Below are positions 41,979 to 42,284 of a stretch of 64,000 nucleotides of DNA, piece after piece. The notes under the pieces are model-generated. The model ran no database searches. It had not been told where the DNA came from and saw only the letters and a list, made by a program, of their open reading frames with translations. The position numbers and the translations under genes were made by a program. The stretch is from Alphaproteobacteria bacterium. GTDB taxonomy: Bacteria; Pseudomonadota; Alphaproteobacteria; Rs-D84. The stretch lies in NCBI GenBank assembly GCA_017443235.1, contig JAFSOV010000004.1, positions 974-64,973 of the forward strand, in the 5' to 3' direction. The stretch's first letter is position 1; each line of letters opens with the position of its first letter.

Positions 41979-42284
41979 ACAACTACCCCGCCACCGCCAC
42001 AGTCCCCTTCACGTTGTGAAGGGGGGGACCGCGGGACGCGGTGGGGTAGACCTGGGCGCAAAGCGCCATCGCGCAACGCGCGACAACAACTACCCCGCCA
42101 CCGCTGGTGGCCCTCCCCTTCTTCATAAGAAGGGGACTGCCGCGACGGTGAGGAATACAAAAAATAATTCCAGAGAGCAAAGTTCTCCTCCCCCGGAGGA
42201 GTACGGCCTAGCAGGCCGGGAGGCCTGTCGCGCCGTAGCCTTGGCGCTTGCACCACGAAGTTTTAACGAAGTGGCGAAGTGGGA
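41979..42284. repeat. field of nested GC-rich palindromic modules
   Basis: CTACCCCGCCACCGC occurs twice. Also contains the 51-bp module and modules homologous to 24195-24412 (CCCCTTCTT..AAGAAGGGG, CTCCTCCC..GGAGGAG, GGCCTAGCAGGCC). Confidence 0.75.

Follow-up and report, generated by a model that had tools for sequence, protein, structure and literature searches.

Nested folded repeats in an alphaproteobacterial genome and their association with DUF559 nuclease genes

Clutter of GC-rich palindromes is common in small AT-rich genomes. BoxC/PIT/TM repeats are, to our knowledge, present in hundreds of genomes and linked to instability, with no known function or mobiliser; similarly, we know of no role assigned to DUF559, a very large family of Vsr-like nucleases. 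Here we analyse a field of nested GC-rich palindromes at positions 41978-42285 of the window, that is, the whole 64,000-nt stretch under study (contig JAFSOV010000004.1, positions 974 to 64,973 of the forward strand, assembly GCA_017443235.1), from an alphaproteobacterium of the Rs-D84 lineage. The genome comprises 985 kb in 18 contigs, with 44% G+C and 94% completeness. The unit that recurs in the field, which we name ‘E’, is a folded DNA repeat of ~47 nt, and the gene linked to it encodes a DUF559 protein.

Two of the described systems that resemble this locus need introduction. The BoxC/PIT/TM repeats were surveyed by Holder et al. (2015, PMC4666352), in whose paper Hoyne et al. 2000 is cited as an earlier source. 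These G/C-rich intrastrand-triplex repeats of E. coli and other proteobacteria number >3,600 copies in 262 genomes, form triplexes in vitro and are linked to rearrangement; the TM pattern is CCCTCNCCC-N3-6-GGGNGAGGG-N3-GGGNGAGGG, and no mobility gene was found near TMECO (PMC4666352). The second system comprises the repetitive extragenic palindromic (REP) elements tagged with GTAG, which are known in 8 phyla and in which the tag precedes the palindrome (PMC3733652). These are copied via single-stranded DNA (ssDNA) by a REP-associated tyrosine transposase (RAYT, also TnpA-REP), a Y1 HUH enzyme.

Given the repeat and neighbourhood analyses presented below, it is highly probable that triplex-type repeats form the ends of DUF559 cassettes and that the field is a pile-up of their derivatives. 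Specifically, we consider it likely that the field is a nested pile-up of non-autonomous E copies, that two inverted E copies are the ends of a small selfish cassette whose sole gene encodes the DUF559 nuclease, and, more tentatively, that this nuclease may nick the folded ends.

Architecture of the E repeat and covariation of its stems

Each E copy consists, in order, of (A/T)(A/G)T, hairpin 1 (CCCCTTC-loop-GAAGGGG), 1-3 nt, a variable hairpin 2 and a terminal GGGGTAG. We identified at least 39 copies in the genome (39 by regular expression), and 48 of the 60 genomic GGGGTAG sites terminate this same two-hairpin module. The sequence GGTGGGGTAG occurs 23 times in the genome versus ~0.9 expected, and the reversed E pattern had zero matches in 193 genomes. 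The first-pass annotation of the window, made from its sequence alone, had noted nested palindromes, several ending in GGGGTAG with further palindromes behind; these are present, and the census of this genome revealed that they belong to a dispersed, mostly extragenic family. Crude open reading frame (ORF) calls span 89% of the genome, and 27 of the 39 copies lie in the other 11% (p = 1e-17); the remaining 12 are within spurious ORFs that the GC-rich repeats themselves open. Some E copies sit inside coding frames. An intrinsic terminator adjoins about half of the copies, which are placed either right after its T-run or right before its stem.

The copies occur as solo modules and as 7 inverted doublets, and gene-less doublets and solo modules far outnumber gene-bearing copies. 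The same doublet is found at four contig ends (C2, C6, C7 and C8; first ~180 nt), indicating that these repeats break the assembly and that the true copy number is higher than that counted. A variant family, E2, has CTCCTCC/GGAGGAG as hairpin 1 with GGCCYAGCRGGCC; it is present at 8 loci in the genome, where hairpin 2 is GGCCYAGCRGGCC or GGTGTGGAACACC. A further family, E2b (CCCCTCC/GGAGGGG), has the same architecture as E. We also observed a conserved AT-cored hairpin, CCCCGAAAAATGAAATTTTTTGGGG, nested as a repeat within a repeat in the hairpin-1 loop of E at 6 loci (C4:74163, C4:79112, C6:175, C7:23641, C7:85780 and C14:64684).

The stems are preserved through changes on both sides, as first suggested by a few copies in the window. 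The 51-nt double hairpin at 42001-42051 is 100% identical to 41479-41529, and the variant at 60431-60481 (80% identical) carries three paired changes in its second stem, where ACCGCG/CGCGGT becomes ACCACC/GGTGGT. Likewise, GGCCT-AGC-AGGCC (42204-42216) resembles GGCCC-AGC-GGGCC (24387-24399) within a 48-nt repeat of 92% identity. The sequence CTACCCCGCCACCGC does occur twice, inside AACAACTACCCCGCCACCGC (41978-41997 and 42085-42104), but the inverted partner first assigned to it was incorrect, the exact partner being GCGGTGGCGGGGTAG. On the plus strand, GCGGTGGGGTAG belongs to a different hairpin-2 class from GCGGTGGCGGGGTAG, with which it has in common only the GGGGTAG end.

We extended the stem analysis to 215 distinct E copies, pooled from this genome and from loci retrieved in others. 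Because the search pattern fixes the seven outer pairs of hairpin 1, these say nothing about covariation. Of 124 distinct loops, 119 have a complementary first inner pair and 100 have both of the first two pairs complementary, with >10 pair types. Hairpin 2 is represented by 156 distinct sequences with 105 distinct stem arms, a length of 12-30 nt and a mean folding z of -2.5. In a MAFFT alignment of 96 distinct copies tested against 500 shuffles, 87.4% of the cells pair versus 72.0% in shuffles (0/500 reach it), and 221 cells have changed on both sides versus 85. The covariation score is 0.293 versus 0.083 (0/500), with a maximum of 0.058 in slid-register controls. The base of hairpin 2 carries a conserved, strand-specific tandem G.A/A.G step (87 versus 15 pyrimidine equivalents). 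Stem mismatches are G-T in 34 cases versus A-C in 20, a comparison blurred by the register shift of one hairpin-2 class in the alignment. The two outcomes named in advance as counting against a structured family were an absence of further copies and stem changes that fail to compensate; further copies were found, and the changes compensate.

Paired changes could also arise without selection, through templated correction between palindrome arms (quasi-palindrome correction) or through whole-hairpin swapping between copies. The hairpin-2 classes are discrete and recur with differing hairpin-1 versions, as module exchange predicts, and copies within the genome are often identical. This explanation, however, covers the origin of the changes and not the rarity of unpaired versions. 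All 156 distinct hairpin-2 versions across phyla keep a stem at the same place while varying in length from 12 to 30 nt, and the conserved step at its base is not of the Watson-Crick type. As a full account of the stems we find it improbable, and we regard templated correction and module swapping as complementing the cassette interpretation and not as replacing it.

Read in mirror image and with one A changed to T, the purine arm GAAGGGG gives the terminal GGGGTAG. The same relation, including the A-to-T change, holds between the purine arm and the block after hairpin 2 in each of five hairpin-1 classes, namely GAAGGGG/GGGGTAG, GGAGGGG/GGGGTGG, GGAGGAG/GAGGTGG, GGGAGAG/GTGAGGG and GGAAGGG/GGGTAGG. 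In the classes other than CCCCTTC, 53 of 167 hairpins have the mirror block on their downstream side versus 12 of 167 on their upstream side (p = 1e-8); direct and mirror repeats are indistinguishable in the more symmetric blocks. Judged by this symmetry, the third block of a triplex-type motif is GGGGTAG, and hairpin 2 serves as its structured loop 2, which would explain why pairing is required of hairpin 2 but no particular sequence.

E and the BoxC/PIT/TM repeats both comprise a pyrimidine block, a complementary purine block and a second, mirror-symmetric purine block on one strand. Both are multi-copy and intergenic, often form inverted pairs of two subtypes, are patchy among close relatives and are associated with local rearrangement. 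They differ in their blocks, which are 7 nt in E (CCCCTTC/GAAGGGG/GGGGTAG) and 9 nt in TMECO (CCCTCNCCC), and in loop 2, which is a covarying hairpin of 12-30 nt in E and 3 nt in TMECO. Therefore, the published ITxF search, which allows loops of 1-6 nt, would miss E. In addition, E has a recurrent DUF559 nuclease neighbour and target duplications, whereas no mobility gene was found near TMECO.

Mobility of E and its linkage to DUF559

The E family is mobile and linked to a nuclease gene. In the closest species (G055), which is ~83% identical over 698 kb and of which nearly the whole genome was compared, there are 2 E copies versus 39 here. The whole field is missing in G055, where the terminator directly abuts the heptads that border the field (CCGTTTTTA followed at once by CACTAACCACTA). 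The E copy downstream of rpmG is absent from G055 and from six further contigs encoding an identical L33, in all of which TTAGTGG-type heptads and the terminator occupy the site; a decayed E copy remains there in one species (L284). The copy at 60431 corresponds to a clean empty site in G055, CGGTGGTTTTT-T-TATTTG, compared with CGGTGGTTTTTT[ATTCCCC...GGGGTAG]TTTTAC in the window. A genome-wide search for empty sites against G055 yielded few clean junctions, owing to the divergence of intergenic DNA at this level of identity (83%). When strains were compared via the exact L33 protein, the sole same-species contig was identical to the window and revealed no recent polymorphism.

Insertion has also left duplicated host DNA. 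Two gene-less doublets are flanked by direct repeats of 18 bp and ~50 bp, each of which is single-copy at the G055 site, and in sister species five cassettes that carry the gene are flanked by repeats of 23-59 bp:

C14:87209-87332 and C13:87240-87367, with loci L052, L054, L057, L060 and L065: host-DNA duplications flanking E(+)..E(-), 18 to ~59 bp

Across DUF559 loci, flanking direct repeats of >=14 nt were detected at 17 of 45, versus 0 of 45 displaced controls, several of the repeats being E-like themselves.

We identified three PF04480 (DUF559, Vsr-like) hits in the genome, each of them bracketed by E. Against PF04480 the protein scores 8e-32, and its nearest solved structure is PDB 3HRL (1.7e-15); it carries the motif IEIDGYSHD and belongs to the superfamily of Vsr-like PD-(D/E)XK nucleases. 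Two of the genes are free-standing (C8:4547-4975 and C15:39880-40290) and lie between the outer ends of two doublets, a layout that is the reverse of the one in most other genomes. Their leader is conserved, with ACTTTGTTATCTGGAATTATTT and a promoter-like TTGATT-17-TATTAT. The third gene, with E2b-type ends, is in frame within queA. This insertion (C13:55270-55870 compared with C10:63920-64170 in G055) replaces ~12 nt of the uninterrupted sister gene and comprises a full DUF559 cassette, ~80 nt and a solo E2b, all in one open frame of 553 codons.

The linkage extends beyond this genome. Among 151 genomes of the genus, 26 have both E and DUF559, 12 only E, 27 only DUF559 and 86 neither (odds ratio 6.9, p = 1e-6); all relatives are metagenome-assembled genomes (MAGs), in which the absence of a gene is weak evidence. 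Elsewhere, E was sought by a pattern scan of one genome per species, for which ~28 chance hits are expected at uniform composition. Among the matches listed are Bacteroidales, Flavobacteriales, Chitinophagales, Ignavibacteria, Deferribacteraceae and Oscillospiraceae, as well as Polaromonas, Francisella, Caedibacter and MAGs of Rickettsiales. The E-bearing genomes of other phyla have 1-166 copies each and none of the reversed pattern. DUF559 is encoded in 31 of 42 of them versus 2 of 14 controls, and E lies beside the gene at 22 of 30 DUF559 loci versus 1 of 14 Y1-transposase loci (p = 5e-5). The usual layout there is E(+)-ORF-E(-), with GGGGTAG pointing inward at ~60 nt from an ORF that may run either way round. 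A literature search on DUF559 with palindromes or repeats returned no description of such a cassette, and we did not find the hairpin-in-loop variant, the consistent DUF559 partnership or the long variable duplications in Rfam or the literature searched.

The first-pass annotation had likened the field to REP elements serviced by a RAYT. E does share with REPs and with their hairpin-forming inverted doublets (REPINs) the multi-copy extragenic palindromes, a terminal GTAG, long-hairpin inverted doublets and clusters resembling bacterial interspersed mosaic elements (BIMEs), and in this genome another palindrome often stands behind GGGGTAG. The resemblance in behaviour was borne out, given that E forms inverted doublets and mosaics and that its presence varies between species. 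The RAYT itself was not recovered: PF01797 is absent from the genome at an E-value of <=1, which refutes this explanation for the genome unless a RAYT lies in the unassembled 6%, and among the 151 genus genomes 2 encode it. Y1 genes are present in 27 of the 42 E-bearing genomes of other phyla, but E is rarely near them, as the locus counts given above indicate, and the linked gene is DUF559. Further, the GTAG of E is 3' of both hairpins, what comes after it across phyla is TGGTA or TAATA and not a palindrome, and the tag covaries with hairpin 1 as a mirror repeat. Copying of E by a RAYT is thus extremely improbable. As a separate observation, E-rich Bacteroidota (loci L291-L302, genomes G168-G208) encode 2-6 small Y1 (IS200/RAYT-like) genes, which are not flanked by E.

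Several points weigh against the cassette interpretation. Several genomes contain many E copies and no detectable DUF559 (19 copies in G015, 40 in G195, 30 in G176 and 23 in G169), these being MAGs that may be incomplete; conversely, the 27 genus genomes with DUF559 only are without this E type, though other E variants exist. The DUF559 genes on C8 and C15 are outside doublets and not inside them, so that any assignment of the unit of movement is tentative. Long target duplications were seen in this genus only, and not at four doublets read in other phyla. Solo E modules cannot come from a cassette by simple recombination between its ends, and we know of no Vsr-family nuclease that acts as a transposase. 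Copies behind gene 3' ends are sense-oriented in 30 of 42 cases (30 versus 12, p = 0.008), and in 11 of 13 within 9 nt, a bias for which an RNA role would be an equally good explanation. Finally, triplex folding of E with the hairpin as loop 2 is a prediction, and for TMECO Holder et al. found no stable triplex in vivo (PMC4666352).

Chief among the alternatives is a homing scenario, in which DUF559 would be a free-standing endonuclease gene of the homing type entering pre-existing triplex or hairpin repeats, which would spread or persist by other means, for example as recombination-prone non-B DNA or through another mobiliser. Such homing would accommodate the two ORF layouts, inside and outside E(+)..E(-), and the many E-rich genomes without DUF559, and relatives of DUF559 of the EDxHD type reportedly include homing endonucleases (I-Bth0305I). 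Moreover, TM repeats are tied to local rearrangement in E. coli (PMC4666352). However, cassettes at differing host sites (L060, L054 and L052/L057) bring their own pair of ends and fresh duplications of host DNA, so that the ends travel with the gene. Gene-less doublets likewise have target duplications, and the leader and trailer of the gene persist in ORF-less copies. We therefore consider homing into such repeats rather unlikely.

The field and the other copies in the window

The field is located between the stop codon of a gene for a 565-aa protein (42306-44003) and the terminator of that gene, whose sense strand is the minus strand. Within it are one complete E-spacer-E doublet, one variant and one partial E, and an ORF-deleted cassette. 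With the copy at rpmG and the field borders, the features are:

41479..41527, plus strand: solo E (AGT, CCCCTTC-ACGTTGT-GAAGGGG, GGG, ACCGCGG-GA-CGCGGT, GGGGTAG), between the rpmG stop and the rpmG terminator (41530-41548)
41951..41979, minus strand: terminator-like hairpin with a 10-bp stem, a 2-nt loop and T5 on the minus strand, read by eye
41983..42000, minus strand: partial E, with the 3' arm of hairpin 2 and GGGGTAG only (minus strand GTG-GCGGTGGCGGGGTAG)
42001..42049, plus strand: full E, same sequence as 41479-41527, right-hand member of the inverted doublet
42050..42089, no strand: doublet spacer, with two GC hairpins (GGGCGC-AAA-GCGCC and TCGCGC-AAC-GCGCGA)
42090..42138, minus strand: full E (AGT, CCCCTTCTT-ATG-AAGAAGGGG, AGG, GCCACC-AGC-GGTGGC, GGGGTAG), left-hand member of the doublet
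42139..42177, minus strand: ORF-less cassette remnant, with DUF559 leader ACTTTGCTCTCTGGAATTATTT fused to DUF559 trailer TTTTGTATTCCTCACCGTCGCGGC
42178..42223, plus strand: variant module E2 (CAAAGTT, CTCCTCC-CCCGG-overlapping-GGAGGAG, TAC, GGCCT-AGC-AGGCC, GGGAGG)
42224..42285, no strand: GC hairpin GCGCC-GTAGCCTT-GGCGC and short direct repeats of CGAAGTGG, field debris
42286..42309, minus strand: TTAGTGG-type heptad array (minus strand ATAGTGGTTAGTGGATAGTGTTAG), including the TAG stop of the 565-aa gene, right border of the field

Comparison at the nucleotide level shows that the field is derived from cassettes. Its 139-nt doublet (42001-42138) and the doublet adjoining the DUF559 gene on contig C15 share 90% identity, and in the remnant at 42139..42177 the leader and trailer of the gene are fused without the ~375-nt gene itself. 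The leader of the remnant matches the C8 leader at 20 of 22 nt, and its trailer was compared with TTTTTCATGACCGTCGCGAA (C15) and TTTTCATAATCGTTGCGGT (C8). Both stems of the doublet spacer vary in other doublet copies yet still pair. The partial E lies in a 20-nt direct repeat, GCGGTGGCGGGGTAGTTGTT (41978-41997), whose second copy (42085-42104) completes a bracket around the spacer and the inverted E, which suggests that these two were inserted into an older solo E. The E2 module has the architecture of E with other sequences in place of both hairpins, and this copy has a decayed third block; a sequence similar to the debris that follows it, CTGTCGCGCCGTAGCCTTGGCG, also comes after E2 at two further loci. 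For the minus strand of the field the folding z is -5.6, with the two E modules paired end to end in the predicted fold. At the left border, the hairpin at 41951..41979 ends the transcript of the 565-aa gene; it was missed by the terminator scan, which needed loops of >=3 nt.

Two ORFs run through the field, one of 119 codons (41897-42256, minus strand) and one of 108 codons (42016-42342, plus strand). These are artefacts of stop-poor GC-rich repeats and are liable to be miscalled as genes. TTAGTGG heptad arrays (variants GATTAGT and GATAGTG) at 41473-41490 and 42286-42309 begin at or contain the stops of rpmG and of the 565-aa gene, and the number of heptad units varies between species with an identical L33 protein (loci L284-L290 at 1672-1720). 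The inner flank of E in this clade is GGGGTAGTGGT, within which the heptad is contained.

Three further copies or groups were found elsewhere in the window:

60431..60479, plus strand: solo E with hairpin 2 ACCACC-GGA-GGTGGT, inserted in a terminator T-run upstream of a secreted-protein gene
24200..24247, plus strand: solo E with hairpin 2 GGCGCC-GAAT-GGCGAC, immediately behind a terminator T-run
24361..24466, no strand: gene-less mini-cassette, in which a 19-nt AT-rich spacer separates E2(+) (24361-24411) from an inverted E2b-type end (24431-24466; CCCCCACCCC-GTCGCCGTTCGGCGCCAC-CCCTCCGG)

The position of the field in the 3' untranslated region (UTR) of the 565-aa gene raises the alternative that the modules are 3'- or 5'-UTR stem-loops that stabilise mRNA or aid termination and are kept by selection on RNA folding. 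The adjacency of about half of the copies to an intrinsic terminator or stop codon and the sense bias behind genes are in line with this, some G-T pairs occur in the stems (with the register caveat given above), and REPs are known to stabilise mRNA (PMC3733652). However, both the third block and the stem of hairpin 1 keep their sequence across phyla, a constraint that plain RNA stem-loops would not need, and inverted pairs leave one member antisense in any transcript. Presence varies between close species, and copies also occur in coding frames. An Rfam scan of 41200-42500 at an E-value of <=10 returned nothing relevant, and PIT/BoxC showed no promoter or terminator activity in E. coli (PMC4666352). 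There is accordingly little chance that an RNA role accounts for E, and a UTR role may exist alongside mobility. The scan did return miRNA-type matches at 41992-42147, which merely reflect the long inverted repeat and were rejected.

Proposed mechanism and comparison with known systems

The first-pass annotation attributed the conserved stems to selection on DNA or RNA structure. Selection on structure is reasonable, and we infer that the folding acts on ssDNA and not on RNA. Pointing this way are the mirror block, the strand-specific G.A pairs and the symmetry of the ends, which are inverted repeats irrespective of ORF direction, together with the statement in the introduction of PMC4666352 that purine-motif triplexes do not form in RNA.

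We propose that each end of a cassette would fold into a hairpin or triplex-type structure on transiently single-stranded DNA. The DUF559 nuclease would recognise the conserved blocks and nick there, in cis or in trans. Host repair or replication would then copy or insert the unit, at least in this genus at staggered breaks 18-59 bp apart, which would generate the long target duplications. The copies that survive would be those at sites of low harm, that is, beside terminators, right behind stop codons or in frame. In this scheme DUF559 may be the enzyme that mobilises E, an assignment that we put forward tentatively from the conserved neighbourhood. E modules break assemblies and open spurious ORFs, and they also alter the 3' ends of genes and at times insert in frame. 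They thus deserve recognition in the annotation of MAGs.

Among small alphaproteobacterial genomes, the Rickettsia palindromic elements (RPEs) resemble E as palindromic repeats that can be in frame in genes. RPEs are 100-150 bp long with no known associated gene, whereas most E copies are intergenic; the two are set apart here by description and not by sequence. Miniature inverted-repeat transposable elements (MITEs) share with E the inverted terminal repeats around a short spacer, the loss of an internal gene (as at 42139-42177), target duplications and an excess of gene-less copies. However, E has no DDE, serine or tyrosine transposase, solo half-elements are common, and its duplications are long and variable (18-59 bp), compared with a fixed 2-10 bp in MITEs. 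When we looked for the autonomous partner expected of elements with terminal inverted repeats, the gene sharing E ends was DUF559 and not a known transposase. Homing endonucleases of the Vsr-like/EDxHD type are, like DUF559, encoded by small, selfish and patchily distributed nuclease genes of the same superfamily that sometimes lie in conserved genes (queA here). They differ in that homing involves one cognate site, no terminal repeats and no target duplication, whereas E-DUF559 has folded inverted ends at many unrelated sites.

E also resembles REP/BIME/REPIN-RAYT systems in organisation. Both consist of short extragenic palindromes with complementary stem changes, numbering tens to hundreds of copies (PMC3116915, PMC3479197, PMC8266576, PMC3733652). 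In both, the repeats are found singly, as inverted dimers and in clusters, for the most part downstream of genes, and flank a nuclease gene present in one or a few copies. They differ in the partner, which is a PD-(D/E)XK Vsr-like nuclease for E and a Y1 HUH transposase for REPs. The GTAG of E is on the other side of the hairpin and is part of a mirror block, each unit has two hairpins, and the target duplications are long.

Even more tentatively, E-type repeats and DUF559 could constitute an unrecognised, phylum-spanning class of mobile DNA in which a Vsr-family nickase takes the role of RAYT, a folded ssDNA end (hairpin, structured loop and mirror block) is recognised and copying proceeds from staggered nicks, with target duplications of unusual and variable length as the outcome. 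The BoxC/PIT/TM type thereby gains a candidate partner enzyme. If this is correct, it would account for the origin and patchy spread of BoxC/PIT/TM repeats, which have been orphans since the 1990s, and the large DUF559 family would gain a function. Overall, it would provide a second, mechanistically different counterpart of the REP-RAYT system, built on a PD-(D/E)XK nickase and a folded DNA end.

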